A DNA stretch of 32,049 nt, from assembly GCA_965657355.1 (NCBI GenBank), contig CBFHOE010000003.1, forward strand, positions 245,520-277,568, given 5' to 3'. Shown piece by piece: positions 7,401 to 27,566 of the stretch (position 1 is the stretch's first letter; every line of letters starts with the position of its first letter). This DNA comes from Limisphaerales bacterium. Its GTDB lineage: Bacteria > Verrucomicrobiota > Verrucomicrobiia > Limisphaerales > JAJOIW01. Below the pieces are notes generated by a model that was given only the letters and a program-made list of their open reading frames with translations, ran no database searches and had not been told where the DNA came from. Position numbers and translations under genes: made by a program.

Positions 7401-8069
7401 TTGAAGATCTCTGTATTAAATCTAGTATTCCAATACTCTCGCGATTTGGACGGATTCCGCCTCGAGATACCTGAGCTGGTTATCGAGAGCGGTCAACAAG
7501 TTGCTATCATTGGTCCCAGTGGTTCTGGTAAAAGTACTCTTCTAAAACTTGTCTCTGGGATATTGCTTGCACATTCCGGCTCAGTCTCACTCGATAATCA
7601 TAAAATAGGTGATTGGTCGGATTCGTTACGTCGTTCATTTCGTCTGAAAAATATTGGATTTATCTTTCAAGAATTCGAGTTAATACCTTATCTGGATGTC
7701 AGGGGAAATTTTCTGATGCCTATCCGCTTAGATGGTTCACGACAAATAGACAAGGCTCTTATGCATGAGTCTGAAATTTTGGCTGAGTCACTTGGCTTAA
7801 GCCAGTATCTGACTCATTCGGTGGATAATCTGTCTCAAGGCGAGAAACAAAGAGTTGCAATAGGAAGAGCCCTAATAAACAAACCCTCTCTCATTTTGGC
7901 AGATGAGCCTACAGGTAATCTTGATCCCAAGCGCAAAGCTGAAATAGTTGAATTGCTTAAACAGCAAGCGAACCGAGATGGCGCTACTCTGGTCATGGTA
8001 ACCCATGATCACGGATTGCTTAATCGTTGGGATAAGGTGATTGATTTCAATCAGTTTGTTTCGATTTGA
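7401..8069 (+). CDS. ABC transporter ATP-binding protein (LolD/MacB-like)
   Basis: Walker A GPSGSGKST, IGFIFQ Q-loop, LSQGEKQRVAIGRAL signature, LADEPTGNLD, VTHD. Confidence 0.93.
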   Translation: MKISVLNLVFQYSRDLDGFRLEIPELVIESGQQVAIIGPSGSGKSTLLKLVSGILLAHSGSVSLDNHKIGDWSDSLRRSFRLKNIGFIFQEFELIPYLDVRGNFLMPIRLDGSRQIDKALMHESEILAESLGLSQYLTHSVDNLSQGEKQRVAIGRALINKPSLILADEPTGNLDPKRKAEIVELLKQQANRDGATLVMVTHDHGLLNRWDKVIDFNQFVSI

Positions 8070-9265
8070 GTATGAATTTGGCTTCTTCATTATATCTTGC
8101 ACAAGCATACATCCGAAAGCACGTTTGGAAATCAGTCCTGGTTGTTCTCAGCCTTGTTATGACGATCTCCATTCCGGGCGGCGTTCAAATCATAGTCACG
8201 GAATTTGATAAACACATGAATGAAAGGGCCCAGTCCACTCCATTCATCATTGGTAAAAAAGGAAGTCAATTGGATCTTGTTTTGCATGGATTGTATTTTT
8301 CTAGTGATGCTCCTGGCACTATTACTATGCAGGATGTTGAAGATATACGAACTGAAAATTTGGCTGATGTTTATCCCATTACCAACCTTCGTAAAGCACA
8401 GAAGATCCGGGTCGTGGGGGTAGACTTAGAATACCTTTCATTCCGAAACCTTGACTTAAAAGAAGGGCGTAAATTCGCCATGTTTGGAGAGGCTGTTATT
8501 GGGTCGGAAGTCGCAAAAAACCTTGATCTAAAACCAGGATCCCACTTGATCACTGATGCTGAGAATGTCTTTAATATTGCAGCTGCGTATCCACTTAAAT
8601 TAAATATAGTCGGTGTTAATTACTGGACTGGTACTCCTGATGATTTGGTTGTTTTCGTGAGTCTGGAGACGTCATGGATCATTGAGGGTGTTGGCCACGG
8701 TCATGAGGAAATACAAAAAAATTCTCCGAAAAACTTAAATAATGGTAATCCAGACAGTGAGGTCATTTCAGCGAGTGCAGCTGTTTTGCCGTATACTGAA
8801 ATTTCGAAGGAAAATGCCGGGTCAGTTCACTTTCACGGAGATTCATCAGATTTTCCTGTCACGGCTGCTTTGGTTTTGCCTTATGATCAAAAATCCTCTT
8901 CCATTCTCCAAGGCCGGTTTCTTTCCAGCCAGGACAATGTACAACTTGTTTCTCCCTCAGCTGAGATTAATGAACTGCTCTCGGTTGTTTTTCAGGTCAA
9001 ATCTTTTTTTCAAGCTCAGATGTGGTTGGTCACCTTGACTACTATACTCCTCATAGGATTAGTCATTTCATTATCTCTTAAATTAAGGGAGCGGGAAATG
9101 CGCACCTACTTTGTCATGGGGTGCAGTCGGTGGAGCCAAGCTCAACTGTTAACTACTGAAATTTTCTTATACCTCCTCACCTCTGCTTTTTTGAGCTATC
9201 TATTACTCGGAATACTTTCTCTAAACTCAGGATATTTTGTAGACACTATATTAGCATCTTCCTGA
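8066..9265 (+). CDS. ABC transporter permease, FtsX/MacB-like with large periplasmic domain
   Basis: Overlaps/abuts the ATPase stop (ATG alternative at 8072); one N-terminal TM, EAVIGSEVA periplasmic motif, C-terminal TMs with REREM..YFVMGCS. Confidence 0.85.
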   Translation: MSMNLASSLYLAQAYIRKHVWKSVLVVLSLVMTISIPGGVQIIVTEFDKHMNERAQSTPFIIGKKGSQLDLVLHGLYFSSDAPGTITMQDVEDIRTENLADVYPITNLRKAQKIRVVGVDLEYLSFRNLDLKEGRKFAMFGEAVIGSEVAKNLDLKPGSHLITDAENVFNIAAAYPLKLNIVGVNYWTGTPDDLVVFVSLETSWIIEGVGHGHEEIQKNSPKNLNNGNPDSEVISASAAVLPYTEISKENAGSVHFHGDSSDFPVTAALVLPYDQKSSSILQGRFLSSQDNVQLVSPSAEINELLSVVFQVKSFFQAQMWLVTLTTILLIGLVISLSLKLREREMRTYFVMGCSRWSQAQLLTTEIFLYLLTSAFLSYLLLGILSLNSGYFVDTILASS

Positions 9266-17512: not shown

Positions 17513-19717
17513 TTACATAGCCTGAGTTATAGAATTATATAATTGCCTAAGCCGTGGGATATTGAAACCTTCGGGCATTCGGTCTAAAAGGAATTCTAAA
17601 TCCAAACGAGCAGAAGAAAAATCGCGCGCTTGGATATATTCAAAAGCTCTTTGGAAGCGTGTCTGGTAATCCATTGGCTCCAAGGTCACGAGTAAATCCA
17701 AATATTTTAAATTTTTAGGATTATCTGAAAAGCTCACTAAATTTCGAATCATTCGGATAAAGATATCTTTTGAGCTATATCCTTTATAGTTCATGACCTG
17801 TTTGCTTGAGGACGTGTCGCCAAAAATCAATTCCGCCACCTCTTCTGCGGGGAGGATTCTCCCATTATCAAAAGCGTCTATCCATGCTATGGAGTCGCCA
17901 TCTCTTTCCCAAGCAATCATGAAATGCCCCGGGAAAGCGGCGCCAGATAATCCATCAATAAATAATCTTTGTCCAAGCTCAATAAACAAAACAGAAAGAG
18001 AAATGGGTAATCCCTCCCTATCATCCAAAACTTTACTCAGGTAACTATTGGCGGTATTGCTATAATCACTTCGACTTCCTCGGAAACCATTCTTCTCAAA
18101 TAGGTAATCGATGAGTGTGTTCAGTCGTTGTTCTTGGTCTGCGAAGTCAGGAAGACTAATGAGAATCTCTTCAGCCATTTCATCTAACATCTCGGTATAA
18201 GTTTGTATTTCCAAATCTGGATTCTCATATTTTCCCAAAAGCAAAGCCGCTTTCACAACGCTCTTATCAAAAGATTTCTTTTTTGTTTCAGCCACAATTT
18301 GTTGTAGGACAGAATTGTGGTGAAGTTTCTTTGTCAATGATTCCAAAGCAGACGCTTGCTTTCTTAATTTTTCTAATTCGCTTTTAAGAACAACAGCGGT
18401 TGTCGATGGGTTTTTTTTCACAAGTTCAGAATCCAAAAAATCTTCCTCCCACCCTTTCTCATTCTTTTCCAACGACTTAACAATCTTTTCCCTGAATCGC
18501 TCAGTAGGAAACATCGATGATTCCAGTATACCGAAATTAGTGAACTCCGCGTGTGTCTGGCGAAATTTTGCCAAACCACTAAATCCTTTGACTGGATTTC
18601 GAGTCATATGTTCCACTATTCTTTCACCATTAAGAAACCCTTCAATTTTATCCTGACTGACAAGCACTTTAACATCATTCCATTCACCGAGGTTGTATTT
18701 TGCGGCTGATATTTGTGCAACAATGTCCCACGAAAAAACATCAGGGCCTTTGAAATGAGTTAATCTGATATTTCCTGCTGAAGGATAGAATCCCCAGTGC
18801 TCGCCAGTATCGGAAAAACCAAATACAAGTCCTGCAGCTCCTGACTCGTCGTCAAGTAACACCTTGGCCCTGACTTCGTATGGAAATTTATCGAGAGGTA
18901 GTTGCCTGATGAGTAGAGACCTTCCCCCAAAACTATTTCCTACTCCAGTGACTTTGATACTGCCATGACGTGTTTTCCATGAAGCTCCGAATATATTTTT
19001 CCATAAACGTGGGTTCGGTTCACCCAAACGAACCCAGTTCTTAATCGAAACTGGGTTCGGATTTTCAAGTAATTCACGTACATGCTTTATACTCACAGCG
19101 AAACCAAGATTGTCCGTAACTAGTGATTTTAGAGTGATGACACCATGAACCCGTCCCTGACGATCCACCAATGGCCCTCCGCTATTTCCAGGCTCTATTG
19201 GCATAGCCAATTGATACATTTCAGTTTTATCAAATGTCCGGATTTCACTTACAACCCCCTCAACAACGCTATTTTCTAATCCTTGAGGATTTCCAATTGC
19301 GATAACCGATTGACCTTTCTTGAGCGGTTCGGATCTGCCCCCTAAAATCAATGGTTCGAATGAATTCTCAACTCCCTCAACTTTCAAAATAGCAATATCA
19401 TGGAGCCTGCTCCATGCATGAACTCCGGCTACCTTTATGTTTGGGTTATCTTTAGTTGATACTGTGACAGGGCGTCCTTCGCCGATCACATGTAGGTTTG
19501 TGACAACCAGATTCTTGCTGCTAATGAAGAAACCACTTCCTATACCACTTTCCTCGCCTCGCCGGTCGATCTGTTTAATCGTTACGATTGCATCCTGTGC
19601 GTTTTTTGACAGCTCCGTTGTCGAAGTATCTTGAGTGTAGGAGCTGAGACAAAAAGAGCAGCCTGCAATAAATAAAAAATTTCTAAGCCACGGTTGCCAC
19701 AAATTTGTTTCGTACAT
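17513..19717 (-). CDS. Trypsin-like serine protease fused to a DUF1080-like beta-sandwich, coiled coil, SirB1/transglutaminase-like core and TPR
   Basis: Catalytic triad motifs VTNLHVI, HDIAIL, PGNSGGPL; AGLVFGF...GEWNDVKV beta-sandwich; SirB1-type YLSKVLDDREGLPISLSVLF...FPGHF...IDAFDNG. ATG at 19717 preferred over the TTG at 19756. Confidence 0.82.
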   Translation of the reverse strand: MYETNLWQPWLRNFLFIAGCSFCLSSYTQDTSTTELSKNAQDAIVTIKQIDRRGEESGIGSGFFISSKNLVVTNLHVIGEGRPVTVSTKDNPNIKVAGVHAWSRLHDIAILKVEGVENSFEPLILGGRSEPLKKGQSVIAIGNPQGLENSVVEGVVSEIRTFDKTEMYQLAMPIEPGNSGGPLVDRQGRVHGVITLKSLVTDNLGFAVSIKHVRELLENPNPVSIKNWVRLGEPNPRLWKNIFGASWKTRHGSIKVTGVGNSFGGRSLLIRQLPLDKFPYEVRAKVLLDDESGAAGLVFGFSDTGEHWGFYPSAGNIRLTHFKGPDVFSWDIVAQISAAKYNLGEWNDVKVLVSQDKIEGFLNGERIVEHMTRNPVKGFSGLAKFRQTHAEFTNFGILESSMFPTERFREKIVKSLEKNEKGWEEDFLDSELVKKNPSTTAVVLKSELEKLRKQASALESLTKKLHHNSVLQQIVAETKKKSFDKSVVKAALLLGKYENPDLEIQTYTEMLDEMAEEILISLPDFADQEQRLNTLIDYLFEKNGFRGSRSDYSNTANSYLSKVLDDREGLPISLSVLFIELGQRLFIDGLSGAAFPGHFMIAWERDGDSIAWIDAFDNGRILPAEEVAELIFGDTSSSKQVMNYKGYSSKDIFIRMIRNLVSFSDNPKNLKYLDLLVTLEPMDYQTRFQRAFEYIQARDFSSARLDLEFLLDRMPEGFNIPRLRQLYNSITQAM

Positions 19718-19765
19718 TCCTTTATTCTGAGGCAATTCGGATAACTTTCCACACAAAATAAAAAA

Positions 19766-20512
19766 CTAGACGCAACCATTGGTTTTAGAAGTCCATTGGT
19801 ATAGGAAATTATCGAAGGAAACGACCAAAGTCGGTTCACTCGATTTAATGAGCTGATCTTTGATAGGGACACTTCCCCGAGTCGTCCATGTCTTATTCAA
19901 ATGTGGTCGCCATAAGAAATTTAAAATATCTACGTTCATCTCAGGATGAAACTGCAGACCTAATATCATGTTTTTCCATTTAAATGCTTCAATAGGGCAG
20001 ATACGACTCTCAGCTAATACTTCCAAGTCATTTGGTAACTCTTTCACATGCTCCAAGTGTGAGGTCAGCCAATTAGTTTTGGCGAATCCATGAAAACCGC
20101 TCGCAATTAAAAATTTGTCCTTCTGGCCTAAAGGTTTGAGATTGACGTTTCCAACGCGCGGGCCAGATTTTAATTTTTCAACCTTTCCTCCAAAAACCGA
20201 CGCAATAAGTTGATGCCCATAACATATCCCAATGAGTTTCTTTTCGTTTTCAATGCACCAAGTCACCCATTTTTCCATCTCTTGAGTGGCATAATCATTT
20301 TTCGTCACACTGCGAATGGACCCCGAAAGAATGCAAAGGTCGAAATTTTTTGTCTTCCAGTGCTCTTTTTTCTGCGCCCAATGGACGTATTGGCATTTAA
20401 AAGCGGGGTTTCGACCAAGCCCCGCGCGGAACCACGCTCCCCGAGCCGCATACGGGTGGGCTCGATCGTAAGGCTTACCCCAGTCCATAGTGTCGACAAT
20501 CAAAATTGACAT
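19766..20512 (-). CDS. Class I glutamine amidotransferase (standalone, GuaA-N-like)
   Basis: ILSGS, nucleophile elbow GICYGHQLIA, GLQFHPE His-Glu. ATG at 20512 (MSILIVDT) preferred because the longer call overlaps the divergent gene. Confidence 0.85.
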   Translation of the reverse strand: MSILIVDTMDWGKPYDRAHPYAARGAWFRAGLGRNPAFKCQYVHWAQKKEHWKTKNFDLCILSGSIRSVTKNDYATQEMEKWVTWCIENEKKLIGICYGHQLIASVFGGKVEKLKSGPRVGNVNLKPLGQKDKFLIASGFHGFAKTNWLTSHLEHVKELPNDLEVLAESRICPIEAFKWKNMILGLQFHPEMNVDILNFLWRPHLNKTWTTRGSVPIKDQLIKSSEPTLVVSFDNFLYQWTSKTNGCV

Positions 20513-20628
20513 TACTTTTCCCCAATGGTCATTTTTTTGATGCATGAAAATCGCGCCTTTAATTCGGTCTTTGTGTTTGATAAAAATGCCCTGCGTATCA
20601 AATTTATTCCAGATATTCAGAATCGGAA

Positions 20629-21879
20629 ATGGTTTTAGAAAAATCAAAAATACTTTGTGGCCTCGGTGTCCACTACCGGAAATCTAAACTCGGCAGAACA
20701 GGTGAAGCCGCAAAGGATTTCAGTATTCATTTTGGTAAACTCATTGAAGACGTCTCAATTACGCGTTCCAGCGAGACAGAAAATGCCATTAATGAACTTC
20801 TTGCCGTCGAGAGGTTGGGGGGGCTCACCCTGGATCGTGACCAAAAAGATTTTTCGTCAATTATTCAAATTCGCGTTTCTCGTATACAGGAGAATGAGCT
20901 TTTTAAAGCGATCGGCGAACTATCTCCGAAACAGGAGCGCATGGCTCTTTCAGAATTATTCGGAAGTTATATCAATGCCCCTGTACCAGATGCTTATCGC
21001 GGAGCTTGGAATTTCTGGTGCCAAATTCACTCACAAAATGCCCTTAAAGGTAAGGCGCTTGCTGCTTTCAATAAGGATAAACCAGAGGAAATCAAAGAGA
21101 TCCTTGAACTTATTGTCAAACTCTTCAAGTGGCCGCATGCCAGCCAAATATCTCTTGTAAGCGGTGTCTTGTGCGGAGATACCACTCGTATACACAAAAT
21201 TTACCCGAGGTTAATAAAAGTTCTCAACACCTTCACCGATGGAAGTATTACCGGCCTCCAAGATTTTGGAATAATCCTTGAATCGTGCCATTGTCATTTC
21301 CACGGGAGAATTAGGCTCCACATAAATCGTACTATTGTTGATTTCTCTGGATTTCGTTCCGGTATAAAAATTGAGGACATTGACATTCACAGTCTTATCG
21401 ATGTTGATGTCAGCTCTCCTCGTTGTGTTGTTGTCCAAAAAGAAGCAGCCTTTTACGAGTTAGTCAAATTGAATTGCGGCGACCTTTTAGTCCGGTCAGA
21501 TTACCCTAACGAGCCAACAGTGAAGTTCCTTCAAGCACTGCCAGATTCTCTTGATTTTTGGTTTTTCGGTAACTCTGATGCAATTGGGTTTGATGTCTTA
21601 CGTGAGTTGAGAAAATTGACTGGAAAATCGTTCAAGCCTCTGCATATGAATTTCAGGTCTGGGTCCGGCCATGACAACAATCAGCTCCTTCAAACCGAAC
21701 GAAAACTCTTGGAAGCTCTCCTCCAAGCGCCCGAAGTGCAAGACATGAAACCATGGATTCAGGATATTCTTGAAAATAATTCCAATGGCAATTACGAGCA
21801 AGAGACTCTCGGCGTCCCGACCTTAGACTGGTTCCCTTATTTCGAGTCAAATCGTCCGAACACAATTGAAGCTCACTAA
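20629..21879 (+). CDS. jetD: Wadjet JetD-like (DUF2220/Topo VI-A-type Toprim) protein, orphan, with degenerate catalytic motifs
   Basis: JetD-like layout: LCGDTTRI, LQDFGI, HFHG, RCVVVQKEAAFYEL (canonical V-E-N), WFFGNSDAIGFDVL (canonical G-D-x-D-x-x-G), C-terminal YEQE. Recognised by motif recall, not by an HMM. Confidence 0.72.
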   Translation: MVLEKSKILCGLGVHYRKSKLGRTGEAAKDFSIHFGKLIEDVSITRSSETENAINELLAVERLGGLTLDRDQKDFSSIIQIRVSRIQENELFKAIGELSPKQERMALSELFGSYINAPVPDAYRGAWNFWCQIHSQNALKGKALAAFNKDKPEEIKEILELIVKLFKWPHASQISLVSGVLCGDTTRIHKIYPRLIKVLNTFTDGSITGLQDFGIILESCHCHFHGRIRLHINRTIVDFSGFRSGIKIEDIDIHSLIDVDVSSPRCVVVQKEAAFYELVKLNCGDLLVRSDYPNEPTVKFLQALPDSLDFWFFGNSDAIGFDVLRELRKLTGKSFKPLHMNFRSGSGHDNNQLLQTERKLLEALLQAPEVQDMKPWIQDILENNSNGNYEQETLGVPTLDWFPYFESNRPNTIEAH

Positions 21880-21932: not shown

Positions 21933-22613
21933 ATGCCTCACCACAAACCGACTGCTTTTTACTTTGTTGTCAGCCTGATTTTTACGATAGCTGGGATTCA
22001 AACTAACGCCATCGCCCAAAGCTACAAAAGAAGCGATTACGAAATTCGCCAGGACGAGGTTAAAAAGCCTATGGTTTTGCGCTCCTTCATCGTTGGTGGT
22101 CCGGCCAGAGCCATTTCTGTTGGGACTCCTGAGGGTATCCACTACTGTTTTGATGCTTCCAATCCCAGGGTCGTATCCGCGTGGTCCGGAGATTTCCTGG
22201 ATATTGGCCCCGATCGTGGCTATGGCAAAGGAAGAGGCGGGAAGCACGCTAAAGTTCTCGGAAAAAAATTTGATATCGGCGATGCCGGTTTTCCCTTTTT
22301 GATCAATGGATCGAAGCCAACCAAAATAGAATTCCTTGGTTACCGCACAAAACCATATCCAGAATTTTATTACTCTATTAACGATTCCATAAAAATTTCT
22401 CAACTTATCAAACCCGATAAAAAATCCCATGGTCTTGAATACCATTTCTCAATCTCCGGGGCTTCTCAAAGCCTCAACTTTAAACTCGATGATTCGCAAG
22501 TTGTCGTCTCTTCGAATAAAGGGAATTACAAAGGCGGCCTGGTCACATTGACCCCTGCTGAATCGACCAAATTTACTATCTCTGTTCATCCTAAAGTTTC
22601 TAAACCTGAATAA
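21933..22613 (+). CDS. Secreted hypothetical protein resembling accessory domains of large PVC/Bacteroidota secreted multidomain proteins
   Basis: Signal peptide (AIA-Q); motif RAISVGTPEGIHYCFD...AWSGDFLD; 33 bp upstream of the beta-propeller gene. Confidence 0.6.
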   Translation: MPHHKPTAFYFVVSLIFTIAGIQTNAIAQSYKRSDYEIRQDEVKKPMVLRSFIVGGPARAISVGTPEGIHYCFDASNPRVVSAWSGDFLDIGPDRGYGKGRGGKHAKVLGKKFDIGDAGFPFLINGSKPTKIEFLGYRTKPYPEFYYSINDSIKISQLIKPDKKSHGLEYHFSISGASQSLNFKLDDSQVVVSSNKGNYKGGLVTLTPAESTKFTISVHPKVSKPE

Positions 22614-24221: not shown

Positions 24222-25205
24222 CTACCCGCCTGCATTCCGAAATGAATGCAGGTCTCTTATTCCAGTGCCGCTCATGCTATGTGCCACTTTCCCTCTCTTT
24301 TTCCCGAGCCATTGGTGGCGATGCTCGAAATATTCCTTTAAATAATCAGCGCTTCCGATAGCTAGCCCTTCGCTAAAATATCTAATTTTCATCTTCAGTG
24401 CTTTTTTTACACTCAACACCCCCTTGCGCTCTCTCTCCGCCATGACTTCCTCAGGAGTAAAACTTTTCTTGCCCTCCCGTTGTTCACCCCCCACTTCGTA
24501 CAAATATACTCGATATCGATGGAGTGCCTCTTGCCATTCGTTTATGCCCGTTCTTCCTGCGCATAACTGCATAATGCCTTTTCTGGCTTTCTTTCCTCCT
24601 GCTATCGCTTCTGCGTAGGAACTCCATCGATATTCGCTGGGGTCCCGAACCATTCCAGCACGTATTGGGTTCAATTCAATATAAGCTGCTGTTCGCATTA
24701 AAGCGTTTTCGCGACCTTCTATGGAGACACTTTTAAAGCGTTCCTCCCACAATGTTCCCTTCCTGTCTAATTTACGATTATACCAGCTACTAAATTTCTG
24801 TTTTATGTCTCTGACAAAGCTAGAAAGGTTATACATTCTCTGACGCAACTGGTCATAAAGTTCTTTCTCATACCTGATATTCCCGAAGTTTTTGTGGCGT
24901 TCGATCATTATATCCATCTGAGCAATTTTCTTTTTAGAGTAGATATTTTTCATCCTGCGGCGCACTTCCTCATCAGAGATTTCATCTGGCTTGACTGGCA
25001 AATGAATTAGAAGATGAAAATGGTTCCCCATGAGGCAATAAGACAGGACTTCCAGGCCAGTAAAGGCTTCGTGTTTTCGAATAAGCCTCAGTAAATACTC
25101 ATTTTCATTATCTTCCATGATGATCCGTCTATCCACAACCCTACTGATCACATGAAAACATTGGGCTCGGTTTTTTGAGATCTGAACATTCCTTGGTACT
25201 CGCAT
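24222..25205 (-). mobile_element. rayT: REP-associated tyrosine transposase (RAYT, Y1 HUH, IS200/IS605 superfamily)
   Basis: FHVISR, YCLMGNHFHLL (HUH), YNRK...GTLWEERFKS, AYIELNPIRAGMV (catalytic Tyr), YRWSSY. Start reassigned to ATG 25205 (MRVPR). Confidence 0.88.
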
Positions 25206-25215
25206 ATTCGTCGTG

Positions 25216-25243
25216 ATTTTAAAAAACAATGGAACTATGTCAA
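25216..25243 (-). promoter_or_regulatory. Sigma70-type promoter of rayT
   Basis: Minus strand TTGACA (25243-25238), 16-nt spacer, TAAAAT (25221-25216); ATG begins 11 nt after the -10 box. Confidence 0.65.
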
Positions 25244-25283: not shown

Positions 25284-26273
25284 CTAAACGTATTTTCTTG
25301 CTCTTATGTCCTCAAGTATGGCGTAGAGGTCTGGGATGGAATCGATGTTGTGTATGTTTCTGGCTTGTGATTTGGATTTGACCGAAGCGTAAGCATATGC
25401 GCTTTTTCCACCAAGAATGATGCAGGTTGAGGGCGGAAGGTAATCGTGCAGGCGCCCAATTTCATCAGGCAGCTTTGGGTCGTCAGCCGGGTATACAATA
25501 CTCAACGCAACTGCTTTTGCGGAGATTTGAGTGGCCGCACCAGCAATTTCTTCAGCATTGATGTTTGATCCGAGGTATTTGCAGTTCCAACCAACAGACG
25601 AACCTGCAGCATAAACCATGGCAGCGCCTAGCTCGTGGAGCTGACCACTTGGAGTTGCTATAATCAATTTGGGCGCCAACGGGTCAGTGACGTATGGGCG
25701 ACCAATTTCGCATAAAAATTGTCTGATTATTGCTGATGAGAAATGTTCATGGGCAACTTTTAGATTTCCTCCCAGCCACTGTTCTCCAATTGTTTTGGCC
25801 AAGGGACCAATAACCTTTTCAATGAGCCCTTGATGTCCAAATTGCACAGCACCTGCTCTTAGGTTGTTGACAAGCGCCACTTCATCCAGTTCTTTCGTTG
25901 CGACAAGACATTTAGAGACCACTTCACTTGGTGTTAATGGTTTTGTGAAAGTGTTAGGATTGAATTGCTGATTCTTTTCGACTTGCTGGTCCTCATGGAT
26001 GAGTTCCTTGAGTTCGGCGTATGACATCTTTGCTAGCTGCCCGATTCTGTGCCCGCGCTCAGAAGCCAACCTCATATATGTGAGGCGTTGAATATCTTCG
26101 TCGTTGTAAAGTCTTCTGTTGGATCCTGTTCTTTTTGGGGTTACGGCTCCATACCTTTTCTCCCATATCCGCAATACATGAGCCGATAACCCAGTGCGGA
26201 TAGACACAACCTTGATAGGGTGCAGGTTATCCTCTGCCGGTCCAACGCTTATCTCCGAAGATCTCACATTCAT
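25284..26273 (-). CDS. carH: CarH/LitR-type MerR-family adenosylcobalamin-binding photoreceptor/transcriptional regulator
   Basis: MerR HTH with LRIWEKRYG and RRLY; W-x9-EH motif (WLGGNLKVAHEH); B12-binding QLHELG followed by YLG and VALS...GG Rossmann elements. Confidence 0.88.
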   Translation of the reverse strand: MNVRSSEISVGPAEDNLHPIKVVSIRTGLSAHVLRIWEKRYGAVTPKRTGSNRRLYNDEDIQRLTYMRLASERGHRIGQLAKMSYAELKELIHEDQQVEKNQQFNPNTFTKPLTPSEVVSKCLVATKELDEVALVNNLRAGAVQFGHQGLIEKVIGPLAKTIGEQWLGGNLKVAHEHFSSAIIRQFLCEIGRPYVTDPLAPKLIIATPSGQLHELGAAMVYAAGSSVGWNCKYLGSNINAEEIAGAATQISAKAVALSIVYPADDPKLPDEIGRLHDYLPPSTCIILGGKSAYAYASVKSKSQARNIHNIDSIPDLYAILEDIRARKYV

Positions 26274-26299
26274 ACTCTGTTTAATAGTATTCCAGTGTA

Positions 26300-26444
26300 T
26301 TGTCTAAATGTCTAATAAAAAAATAGACAAAAAACATTTGAAAACTAAACAGACTTGTATATTTTAGACAAACAAGACTCGATGTAGAGATTATGAGGAA
26401 AAAATTTAGACAACTACATATTTTTTTTGAACAAAACCTAGATC
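26300..26444. promoter_or_regulatory. Candidate CarH operator array in the divergent carH-sigma intergenic region
   Basis: TGTCTA at 26301 and 26309; TAGACA at 26324, 26365 and 26407; TAAACA at 26346; TGAACA at 26428. All fit the TnnACA core of characterised CarH operators. Confidence 0.6.
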
Positions 26445-26501
26445 CATACGTCTAAGTATTAAATTTAAGCGAATATTCACTCTGAAATATTAGAATTAAT
26501 T

Positions 26502-27566
26502 ATGAATGCCACTCGGTCAACAACAGGAAATAGGGTCGTCAATCCCGGCAAAAGCCGCAGAAGCGAATCTTCCAAAAATGAAATCAAAGAATCATCGACG
26601 CTGGACGGGAAGATACTGCTTGCAGATGAACTCCCTGAGAAAGTTCAACTCCGAGTTGAGTCTCCTAAACAAACCAGGAAATCAGCCCCTATTCCAAGCA
26701 TTAATGAAACAGGAAGCTCCTTAGGGCGATACATGCATGAAATAGGTCAAGTCGACCTTCTCAAGCCGGAAGAGGAGAGAGAGCTTGCTGCATTGATTCA
26801 CGCAGGTGACGAATCAGCCCGCGAAAAAATGATCACTGCAAACTTGAGACTGGTCGTCAAGATTGCTAAAGAATACGAAGGATTTGGCCTTCCATTACAA
26901 GACCTCATAAACGAGGGCAATATAGGCCTTATGAAAGCTGTTGAAAGATTTGATCCTAGCAAAGGAAGCAAACTATCTACATACGCTTCCTGGTGGATCA
27001 AACAGGCTGTCAAAAGGGCTCTTGGCAACCAAAGCAAAACAATTCGTTTGCCGCTACATTTGGTGGACCGGCTTTCAAGGATGCGAAAAATTGCTAAAAA
27101 ATATTTCGAGGAATTTAAAAGGGAACCTACAGATGAGGAACTATCAGACGAGCTTGAAATAGCATTGCCGAGAGTGAGATTGTTGAGACGAGCCAGCATG
27201 CGTCCTCTTTCATTGGAAACACCCATTGGGGATGATGAAAGCAGCAGCATAAGCGACATTGTCCCGGATGAAAAAGCTATCAATCCGTACGATCAGCTCG
27301 AAGACAAAGCGCTCAAAGGCTTACTACCAGGTTTGATGCAAACGCTGACATTCCGCGAAGCAGAAATTCTTAAGAGAAGATTTGGGTTGGACGGGAATCC
27401 GGGAATGACACTTGAGGAGGTTGGTGAGCTTTTCGGGGTTACTCGTGAAAGGATCCGGCAGCTTCAAAACGCAGCCCTCAAAAAACTAAGAACCAAAATT
27501 GAGCAGGATCAAGACGTCAATGATTTGGAATTTGATGAAATCCCCCTATTTGCCCAAGCCAGTTAA
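26502..27566 (+). CDS. RNA polymerase sigma-70 factor, RpoD/RpoS-like (regions 1.2-4, no recognisable region 1.1)
   Basis: YMHEIGQVDLL (1.2), ANLRLVVKIAKEY, DLINEGNIGLMKAVERFD, STYASWWIKQ, KTIRLP, TLEEVGELFGVTRERIRQ (4.2). Confidence 0.93.
   Translation: MNATRSTTGNRVVNPGKSRRSESSKNEIKESSTLDGKILLADELPEKVQLRVESPKQTRKSAPIPSINETGSSLGRYMHEIGQVDLLKPEEERELAALIHAGDESAREKMITANLRLVVKIAKEYEGFGLPLQDLINEGNIGLMKAVERFDPSKGSKLSTYASWWIKQAVKRALGNQSKTIRLPLHLVDRLSRMRKIAKKYFEEFKREPTDEELSDELEIALPRVRLLRRASMRPLSLETPIGDDESSSISDIVPDEKAINPYDQLEDKALKGLLPGLMQTLTFREAEILKRRFGLDGNPGMTLEEVGELFGVTRERIRQLQNAALKKLRTKIEQDQDVNDLEFDEIPLFAQAS

Follow-up and report, generated by a model that had tools for sequence, protein, structure and literature searches.

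To our knowledge, the one role described for JetD is that of executioner in JetABCD, a machine that restricts plasmids. Until a fully extruded plasmid is presented to it by JetABC, the protein stays inactive; its scaffold, a V-shaped dimer, wraps around kinked DNA. In excerpts of two bioRxiv preprints, the E248A substitution in Escherichia coli JetD abolishes both plasmid restriction and cleavage, and for the homologue MksG the available part of one study (PMC10123090) describes drastic impairment by E236A and by D279A and proposes E349 and E351 as alternative nucleophile residues. Our literature searches retrieved no account of a JetD that is an orphan or has an altered catalytic site, and the review passages available are likewise silent.

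We analyzed a 32,049-nt stretch of DNA, here called the window, from a marine Limisphaerales bacterium (GenBank assembly GCA_965657355.1, contig CBFHOE010000003.1, positions 245,520–277,568 of the forward strand; GTDB lineage Bacteria; Verrucomicrobiota; Verrucomicrobiia; Limisphaerales; JAJOIW01), whose genome is 92.4% complete. An earlier note on this DNA had described an uninterrupted 416-residue ORF, and translation bore this out (Table 1). Codon 270 reads CAA (Gln, 21436–21438) inside the motif VVVQKE and codon 315 reads AAC (Asn, 21571–21573) inside GNSD, as had been claimed.

Table 1. Positions of the orphan JetD gene, its domains and motifs, and its neighbours in the window
Feature	Coordinates	Strand	Evidence or remarks
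Orphan JetD-like gene, 416 aa + stop	20629..21879	+	Intact ORF, PADLOC JetD1, Pfam JetD_C, AlphaFold, fold matches
N-terminal arm + CAP ("aCAP") half, residues ~1-215	20629..21273	+	Structural alignment; boundary approximate
CAP-side stretch with S175, T185, T186	21151..21186	+	Canonical JetD: R (97%), S (100%), K (100%)
Toprim domain, residues ~216-405	21274..21843	+	Pfam JetD_C over 244-396; profile aligns to 1d3y, 2zbk, 8b7f, 8q72, 7til
Q270-K271 (CAA AAA), where the Toprim glutamate motif otherwise has an invariant E-N	21436..21441	+	Column counts, profile-to-PDB alignment
F312-F-G-N315-S-D317, replacing H-x-G-D-x-D	21562..21579	+	Column counts
E390-Q391-E392, kept family-invariant motif	21796..21804	+	Invariant in 77/77 aligned sequences
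Class-I glutamine amidotransferase, divergent conserved neighbour	19766..20647	-	Pfam GATase
226-aa ORF with signal-peptide-like N terminus	21933..22613	+	Partly conserved neighbour, no Pfam match

Family membership and fold

The encoded protein is a member of the type I JetD family. The PADLOC profile JetD1 (PDLC00533, 409 positions) matched residues 5–394 with an E value of 1.4e-24, and Pfam JetD_C scored 25.7 bits (cut-off, 22); a search of NCBIfam returned no family. With the single sequence as query, no match was found in the PDB at E values of up to 10, whereas the family profile did match. A search of the ESM Atlas returned JetD clusters only.

The AlphaFold model of the protein reached a pLDDT of 95.5; an earlier run on a 10-sequence alignment, in which the Toprim region was poor (pLDDT 74.6), was set aside. 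The best Foldseek matches of the model were JetD (7til), Top6A, MksG (8b7f) and Spo11, each with a probability of 1.00. Superposition with VIA-align gave Z scores of 13.8 for JetD 7til (r.m.s.d. 11.6 over 339 residues, model residues 6–405), 13.6 for MksG 8b7f (6.9 over 324 residues, model residues 6–406), 18.3 for Topo VI-A 1d3y (7.8 over 248 residues) and 15.0 for Spo11 8urq (5.9 over 271 residues). The model displays the two-domain fold of JetD and MksG, with an arm/CAP N-terminal half and a Toprim domain at the C terminus, and the profile searches and superpositions together uphold the earlier description of a JetD-like Toprim protein. Within the N-terminal half, residues 1–105 are winged-helix-like and residues 150–215 match the CAP domain of Topo VI-A in the structural alignment.

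A homodimer was predicted with a score of 0.61, compared with 0.00 for the best control. That mark is passed by 20 of the 30 proteins whose solved structures are same-chain pairs, versus 1 of the 23 whose solved structures are single chains. At least 91% of the contacts agreed between runs, and the partner pLDDT was at least 84. The predicted interface is centred on residues 232–255 and also takes in residues 170–185. The protein is predicted on this basis to pair through its Toprim domain, a result that may reflect likeness to the solved dimers of JetD, MksG and Topo VI-A.

Residue replacements at the catalytic centre

To place Q270 and N315, we aligned a profile of 77 family members to solved PDB chains. 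The V-E-N column of the profile is matched by VAN in E. coli JetD(E248A) (8q72_M), VEN in MksG (8b7f) and AIE in Methanocaldococcus jannaschii Topo VI-A (1d3y), and the GDxD column coincides with the DxD of the same three chains. Q270 aligns with E248 of E. coli JetD and E236 of MksG, and N315 aligns with D279 of MksG. Because the profile columns coincide with the motifs of the solved chains, Q270 and N315 sit at positions of metal-binding acids, in agreement with the earlier assignment, and the Toprim triad E...DxD (E248/D290/D292 in E. coli JetD) reads Q270/N315/D317 in the orphan protein. As a parallel to Q270 we also considered the E342Q change of the Top6 structure 9o0g and rejected it: E342 is an inter-domain clasp residue and not a Toprim metal ligand.

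Column counts were made over 71 canonical JetD relatives and 6 sequences of the clade that shares the altered site. Twelve residues are invariant across the 71 canonical relatives, the glutamate and the first aspartate of the triad included, and half of these twelve are altered here (S185T, K186T, E270Q, N271K, H312F and D315N). R175, found in 97% of canonical relatives, has given way to serine. The two changes recognized earlier, at positions 270 and 315, are confirmed, and their number rises to seven with N271, H312, S185, K186 and R175. These last five, being invariant or nearly so in canonical JetD and jointly lost here, are candidates for residues of its catalytic centre.

The replaced positions behave in two ways within the clade. 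At 175 (S/D/E) and 186 (T/S/G) the residues vary, and this drift fits a released constraint. At position 312, histidine in all 71 canonical relatives, the clade has F or Y, and at 315, likewise always aspartate there, it has N. G314, D317, G320 and E390-Q391-E392 are kept, the E390/E392 motif corresponding to E349/E351 of MksG. Invariant throughout the clade are Q270, K271, N315, S316, D317 and E390-Q391-E392. This conservation speaks for a pocket of continuing importance, one that could hold a metal or a substrate in a new manner. E272, which might have served as a substitute catalytic acid, is not conserved in the clade and is proline in three of its seven members.

The same picture was obtained in an hmmalign alignment of 159 proteins, 130 of which cover the five Toprim sites. 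These sites read E-N-H-D-D in 119 of the 130 and Q-K-F/Y-N-D in seven, all of them members of the clade; the remaining four (three fragments and one locally misaligned protein) differ only at the E/N pair. A change of D315 was found in none of the 130 outside the clade, and the pattern is not a product of chance.

Genomic context, phylogeny and selection

The flanks of the gene hold no SMC-type, kleisin or KITE gene. We searched the 92.4% complete genome for DUF3375, JetA PF18982, DUF4194, SbcC_Walker_B and the JetC protein of a relative and found no match, the PF18982 and JetC-protein searches being run without a positive control of their own, although PF18982 later matched in two control genomes (G096 and G012). 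When the three carrier genomes (92%, 95% and 57% complete) were searched for JetA, JetB and JetC, none was found, whereas the same two control genomes matched all three. The earlier statement that jetABC and SMC genes are absent from the flanks thus stands, and JetA, JetB and JetC were likewise not detected elsewhere in the genome. Canonical relatives of the same order differ in this respect, with 13 of 14 upstream ORFs carrying the JetC Walker B domain and the 14th locus (L012) having it in another frame; at L004 and L005 the whole jetABCD operon is present. Of SMC complexes, the housekeeping Smc-ScpAB alone was detected in the genome, with Smc encoded as one canonical 1290-aa frame with a hinge and AAA_29.

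Orthologues of the amidotransferase lie adjacent and divergent in the clade loci L002 and L003, at 40–45% identity, and the same neighbour is found in all three species; its true start is probably near 20512, as the alignments begin at residue 44–48. A homologue of the downstream 226-aa ORF, 49% identical, lies directly downstream in L002 and is absent from that place in L003. Scanning the surroundings of the gene for promoters and terminators gave no more than shuffled sequences give, and nothing on the plus strand. Contigs from RNA libraries were short and came from three libraries in two studies; they are a weak sign of transcription, given that DNA carry-over is possible and that the uncovered parts of the gene are uninformative.

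The altered-site clade comprises seven proteins of 60–99% identity, each with an intact frame. Its monophyly has a support of 1.0, and it branches from within the canonical JetDs (a 60-sequence node, support 0.957). As judged from this tree, the altered catalytic site is a derived state; the closest canonical JetDs are only ~30–34% identical to the orphan protein. The gene was found in all three species genomes of one GTDB family, represented by three distinct DNA sequences (L007 and L008 turned out to be L002 and L003 again). Its presence in 3 of 3 species beside the same divergent neighbour points to vertical inheritance. When the clade profile was used in a second word-based search, covering proteins outside the "longer" and "shorter" length classes, the same nine proteins came back and no further members; fused or split forms may exist. 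A scan of metagenome_contigs with the clade alignment gave 215 pattern matches and a scan of viral_contigs gave 96, none of them confirmed, and tblastn against the phage and plasmid collections found no match. The sequence itself turned up in 17 sequencing runs of several studies, with at least half of the sampled words present.

Between orthologues, with three genomes and three distinct DNA sequences behind the clade statistics, pS was 0.77–0.89, which is saturated, compared with a pN of 0.15–0.25. As pS lay above the Jukes-Cantor limit, dS was inestimable in 8 of 9 comparisons, and the omega of ~0.07 for the Toprim half of L002/L003 is a bound and not an estimate. In pN the N-terminal half (0.13–0.25) is equal to the Toprim half. 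Codons at the replaced sites have turned over synonymously (Q270 CAA/CAG/CAA, K271 AAA/AAG/AAG, N315 AAC/AAT/AAT), as have those at S316, and variants within the species amount to five synonymous and two conservative non-synonymous changes. The orphan JetD is 62–63% identical between species, compared with 40–45% for the adjacent amidotransferase. The shared changes, the saturated pS against a low pN and the synonymous turnover together argue for purifying selection and not decay. The earlier note had called the gene retained and not randomly decayed and had asked for a constrained clade sharing Q and N; such a clade is what we found.

Interpretation and comparison with known systems

We consider it probable that this gene encodes a domesticated JetD that is dead for canonical cleavage and has been kept as a JetABC-independent, DNA-binding homodimer. 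It would descend from a type I Wadjet (JetABCD) system, in which its ancestor served as nuclease subunit. On the lineage to the marine verrucomicrobial family, jetABC would have been lost and the catalytic centre dismantled, by E270Q, N271K, H312F and D315N on the Toprim side and by loss of R175, S185 and K186 on the CAP side, with the two-domain fold, D317, the E-Q-E motif and the predicted Toprim-mediated homodimer retained. Canonical Mg2+-dependent DNA cleavage has most likely been lost, a judgment by analogy with alanine mutants of other JetDs and not with Q/N variants. The homodimer, under purifying selection, may then bind DNA in a new role, be it architectural, sensing or regulatory. 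Of the features expected of a pseudo-nuclease, a homologous fold, replaced catalytic residues and purifying selection are observed, and the absence of catalytic activity is predicted.

It is possible, if unlikely, that the active site has instead been re-tooled and that the protein is an enzyme (a nuclease, a nickase or a catalyst of another phosphoryl transfer) working without JetABC. Lys271 might take over a charge or acid–base role once played by the metal and the glutamate, or D317, E390, E392 and the amide oxygens of Q270 and N315 might hold the metal. Such a reading would account for the invariance of the replaced Toprim-side residues reported across 60–99% identity in the face of synonymous turnover (with F or Y at 312), for the retention of D317 and E-Q-E and for the gain of a lysine exactly beside the former glutamate. 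A D-to-N mutant in the Toprim domain of topoisomerase I still cleaves DNA, but the chemistry of that enzyme relies on a tyrosine. The joint disappearance of four Toprim-side and three CAP-side residues, with drift at 175 and 186, speaks against a working site; we know of no metal-independent Toprim nuclease, and a nuclease free of JetABC control would endanger the host chromosome. In the excerpts cited above, moreover, a single alanine at the JetD or MksG glutamate or at the MksG first aspartate already abolishes or drastically impairs cleavage.

A dead JetD could also act as a dominant-negative inhibitor that competes for JetABC, or as a decoy that soaks up anti-Wadjet proteins, both of them options raised in the earlier note. 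One preprint, available in part, describes inhibition of wild-type JetABCD cleavage in vitro by excess JetD(E248A), apparently through competition for JetABC. We regard this role as very improbable here: JetA, JetB and JetC were found in none of the three carrier genomes, the gene is present in 3 of 3 species at a chromosomal site whose synteny is conserved, searches of the phage, plasmid and viral-contig collections turned up no relative, and at ~30–34% identity to the nearest canonical JetDs binding to a foreign JetABC is doubtful. It is hardly credible that we are dealing with an assembly error or with the decaying, non-functional remains of a Wadjet operon since lost. The missing partner genes and lost catalytic residues would suit a relic, but the intact frame in 7 of 7 clade proteins, the contrast between pS and pN and a conservation exceeding that of the neighbouring gene do not, and the recurrence of the sequence in the 17 runs tells against relic and error alike. 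The confident fold also suits an intact protein, though that prediction leans mainly on the family alignment.

Within the preferred reading of a domesticated JetD, one sub-case is a protein re-wired from JetC to the housekeeping Smc-ScpAB, as a non-cutting reader of bent or stalled loop DNA. The aCAP domain of canonical JetD docks on the JetC "larynx" in the part of a preprint available, the aCAP half is as constrained here as the Toprim half and carries many clade-specific invariant polar residues, and the genome has one canonical Smc. The gene is, however, unlinked to smc, scpA and scpB, and the residues specific to the clade could be there for any partner, or for DNA; we judge this coupling decidedly unlikely. 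Also quite unlikely is an exaptation in which a Toprim pocket rebuilt around the lysine (Q-K...F-G-N-S-D plus E-Q-E) would read DNA shape or a ligand without canonical Mg2+ chemistry and a re-patterned aCAP surface would dock a new partner, for example Smc-ScpAB; if true, a chromosomal SMC complex would have gained a reader resembling JetD for bent or looped DNA, and this would be the first such exaptation of a Wadjet nuclease subunit.

A JetD that lacks its partners and its catalytic centre, and is still a constrained core gene of its lineage, would mean that the scaffold is useful beyond cutting. The clade may offer a natural separation-of-function variant for the binding of DNA and partners by JetD, and would add a further case of a domesticated defence nuclease.

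The orphan protein resembles the JetD and MksG proteins of solved structure (E. coli GF4-3 8q72, Pseudomonas aeruginosa 7til and Corynebacterium glutamicum MksG 8b7f) in its arm, CAP and Toprim domains, its similar length, its predicted Toprim-mediated homodimer and the retained G-x-x-D, G320 and E-Q-E. It differs from them in the triad, which is Q/N/D instead of E/D/D, and in the replacement of N271, H312, S185, K186 and R175. Its genomes are without detected JetA, JetB or JetC, and the gene is fixed in the synteny of one lineage, whereas the canonical system is a patchily distributed defence operon. For the CAP and Toprim core the best structural matches are Topo VI-A and Spo11, and the profile matches 1d3y at an E value of 1.9e-10, but identity is only ~10–16% and the orphan JetD also lacks the full metal-binding acid triad. 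The JetD-type CAP is itself without the catalytic tyrosine of Topo VI-A and Spo11, as stated in the available part of PMC10586767. A likewise dismantled Wadjet system, with the remaining part in a non-defence role, is MksBEF without MksG, as described in a review available in part. There the SMC core outlives the nuclease; here, in what would be the reciprocal event, the nuclease subunit outlives the SMC core, without its catalytic residues.

Fold and predicted dimer

The 416-residue protein, encoded by an uninterrupted ORF, matched Pfam JetD_C over residues 244–396 (25.7 bits; cut-off 22) and the PADLOC profile JetD1 (PDLC00533; 409 positions) over residues 5–394 (E 1.4e-24); NCBIfam contained no model matching it. 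An AlphaFold model built from the family alignment of 77 sequences was confident (mean pLDDT 95.5, pTM 0.82), and its best solved Foldseek matches, all with probability 1.00, were P. aeruginosa JetD (7til), the Topo VI-A proteins of M. mazei and M. jannaschii, C. glutamicum MksG (8b7f), and Spo11. VIA-align superposed the model on 1d3y (Z 18.3, rmsd 7.8, 248 residues; model residues 150–410), 7til (Z 13.8, rmsd 11.6, 339 residues; model residues 6–405) and 8b7f (Z 13.6, rmsd 6.9, 324 residues), with residues 150–215 falling on the Topo VI-A CAP domain. These family, Foldseek and VIA-align matches indicate the fold of JetD, an arm and CAP followed by Toprim, and judged by sequence and predicted fold the protein is a JetD; the HMM search and superposition that the earlier note had proposed thus both support its assignment.

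A homodimer was predicted with a score of 0.61 against 0.00 for the best control (contact agreement at least 91%, partner pLDDT at least 84), although a likeness to the dimer structures known for JetD, MksG and Topo VI-A may explain why it passes. Among solved proteins, 20 of 30 determined as same-chain pairs attain the mark applied, as does 1 of 23 determined as single chains. The predicted interface includes residues 170–185, 271–280, and 390–396.

Replacement of the catalytic centre

In an alignment of the family profile with PDB sequences, the V-E-N column matches 'VAN' in E. coli JetD(E248A) (8q72_M), 'VEN' in MksG and 'AIE' in M. jannaschii Topo VI-A, and the G-D-x-D column falls on DxD in all three. 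One preprint equates Topo VI-A E197/D249/D251 with JetD E248/D290/D292 and describes JetD(E248A) as devoid of plasmid restriction and DNA cleavage (bioRxiv 10.1101/2022.10.04.510915), and MksG mutants E236A and D279A are reported as drastically impaired (PMC10123090). Together, these place Gln-270 and Asn-315 where two of the three metal ligands would sit; Asp-317, at the remaining position, is kept. The codons and the alignment agree with the earlier note, which had put amides at catalytic acid positions. Glu-272, named there as a possible substitute acid, is proline in three of the seven proteins that share the Q270/K271/N315 pattern (the clade).

The two acid-to-amide changes claimed earlier are both present, but the change is wider. 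Twelve columns are invariant in 71 canonical relatives, JetDs with the acids E270/D315/D317: S185, K186, E270, N271, H312, G314, D315, D317, G320, E390, Q391, and E392. Six clade sequences differ from these at six columns (S185T, K186 to T, S or G, E270Q, N271K, H312 to F or Y, and D315N), and R175, arginine in 97% of the others, is replaced by S, D or E. When 159 proteins were aligned with hmmalign, the five Toprim sites, covered by 130, read E-N-H-D-D in 119 and Q-K-F/Y-N-D in seven (the clade), the remaining four being singletons that deviate at the E/N pair only. The Toprim-side replacements are invariant within the clade, and positions 175 and 186 vary. We infer that, together with the Toprim pocket, R175, S185, and K186 make up a composite centre. 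In Topo VI-A and Spo11 a conserved Arg precedes the catalytic Tyr by four residues, and R175 would presumably match this Arg by ungapped extrapolation of the family-to-PDB alignment.

Descent, constraint and genomic setting

All seven clade members share Q and N, as the earlier note had thought homologues might. A FastTree phylogeny (LG+gamma) of 77 sequences recovers the clade as monophyletic (support 1.0), its stem measuring 0.97 substitutions per site and its root-to-tip length being ordinary (2.56 versus 2.49). It is nested among canonical JetDs (node of 60 sequences, support 0.957; nearer nodes weak, 0.42–0.67), so the altered state derives from a canonical acid-bearing ancestor. The pattern was found in only six clusters of a 5.8-billion-protein collection, one 99% and five 62–72% identical, of which one is named as a Verrucomicrobia MAG protein; an exhaustive search of 1.84 billion representatives gave one clade representative at 61% identity, the next matches being at 33% or less. 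The modeled N-terminal arm resembles winged-helix domains found in MarR-type regulators, MukE, and kleisin C-termini (Z 6–8). Polar residues that are invariant in the clade and specific to it are numerous in this arm, among them S-P-K-Q-E-R at 99–104.

Among the clade's three distinct DNA sequences, pS was 0.77–0.89, past saturation, and pN 0.15–0.25 (Nei-Gojobori), similarly in both protein halves; the single computable dN/dS, 0.07 for the Toprim half of the sister-genome orthologues L002 and L003 (other pairs being saturated), is below 1, as the earlier note expected. Codons differ synonymously at Q270 (CAA/CAG/CAA), K271 (AAA/AAG/AAG), N315 (AAC/AAT/AAT), and S316 (TCT/TCC/TCG), and between-species protein identity is 62–63% versus 40–45% for the adjacent amidotransferase. 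The sequence was found in marine plankton metagenomes (17 runs with at least half of the sampled words); in four runs compared, seven variants fell within the gene, five synonymous and two conservative (G112E and K149R, states of the 99% cluster). Random decay, which the earlier note had rejected, is excluded in practice. Parts of the gene also appear in short RNA-library contigs (three libraries, two studies), no more than a hint that it is transcribed. The orthologues are very unlike in G+C, yet belong to one GTDB genus.

Coordinates of the JetD-like gene, its surroundings and compared loci
Feature	Position	Strand	Remarks
JetD-like gene	window 20629–21879	+	416 codons; G+C 43%, GC3 42%
N-terminal arm, residues 1–105	window 20629–20943	+	
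Codon 270	window 21436	+	CAA (Q), within VVVQKE
Codon 315	window 21571	+	AAC (N), within GNSD
Amidotransferase	window 19766–20647	−	10 nt from next ORF
Trypsin/3-keto-disaccharide-hydrolase/transglutaminase/TPR protein	window 17513–19756	−	
335-aa ORF	window 24222–25229	−	sole Pfam match: N-terminal IS200-like Y1 transposase segment, residues 25–80
MerR + B12-binding regulator, full sigma-70 gene	window 25284–27566		divergent
Orthologue	L002:4145–5383		G+C 59%, GC3 75%
Orthologue	L003:2921–4165		G+C 51%, GC3 57%
Amidotransferase and trypsin-type counterparts	L003:1–2832	−	fused, one ORF of at least 944 aa
JetD in/beside jetABC	L005:7980–9201		canonical; looks broken: ORFs 7980–8537 and 8569–9201
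Canonical JetD in/beside jetABC (L010)	G019:C684:35812–37017		looks broken: one in-frame TGA

The window neighbors encode an amidotransferase, a small protein of secreted appearance, and proteins of the trypsin/transglutaminase and DUF7133 types, with no SMC-like product among them, confirming that no jetABC/SMC genes flank the gene. The source genome (4.38 Mb in 55 contigs, 92.4% complete) has a single match to JetD_C, one canonical Smc, and no match to DUF3375, JetA PF18982, DUF4194, SbcC_Walker_B or a relative's JetC, so the search suggested earlier for a separate jetABCD found no JetA, JetB or JetC. Two sister genomes (95% and 57% complete) likewise gave no JetA/B/C match, and two control genomes (G096 and G012) matched all three beside JetD. 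All three species genomes of the GTDB family carry the gene; in an even sample of the order, 21 of 201 genomes have a JetD match, exceeding 34% identity only in the three of this genus. At 13 of 14 canonical loci the JetC Walker B domain lies in the ORF directly upstream of JetD, and at the fourteenth (L012) in another frame; complete jetABCD operons occur at L004 and L005. The JetD-like gene stands head-to-head with an orthologous amidotransferase gene in the window and in L002 and L003 alike, the downstream ORF being common to the window and L002 only. Alignments suggest an amidotransferase start near 20512, not the TTG at 20647. Farther along, the 335-aa ORF may be a truncated or REP-associated tyrosine transposase relative, and the MerR-type regulator is possibly CarH-like and light-responsive.

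Function and comparison with known systems

The fold, the predicted dimer, and the constraint seen in each of the two domains all speak for a working protein. Seven residues that are fixed in canonical JetD, or nearly so in the case of R175, have been lost, and two of these positions now drift, which speaks for loss of the canonical Mg2+-dependent cleavage. In bioRxiv preprints, canonical JetD is described as a V-shaped dimer in which kinked DNA is wrapped by aCAP and Toprim, with aCAP docking on JetC. Without JetABC, the simplest activity left to the dimer would be DNA binding, and we consider a domesticated, non-cutting DNA-binding factor the probable function, if by no means a secure one. 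Q270, K271, N315, S316, D317, and E-Q-E are all frozen in the clade, as might be expected had the pocket been re-tooled with catalysis persisting, and a D-to-N mutant of the topoisomerase I Toprim retains DNA cleavage according to one report (PMC7587558); set against the lost residues, we regard persisting catalysis as unlikely. A putative re-wiring specifically to the housekeeping Smc seems more doubtful still. In-vitro competition by JetD(E248A) (bioRxiv 10.1101/2022.10.04.510915) is the basis for an inhibitor or decoy role, raised in the earlier note, but that role is disfavored, with no Wadjet system found in the carrier genomes and no relative found in phage, plasmid or viral-contig collections.

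In the literature searched we found no account of a JetD that is an orphan or has an altered catalytic centre. Though tiny and uncultured, the clade is a clean natural pseudo-nuclease candidate and points to further catalytic-centre residues in JetD. MksBEF having lost MksG, described in PMC10586767, is the reciprocal event. In contrast to the functional JetD family, the clade protein lacks two of the features that define it, namely the acid triad and a JetABC context.
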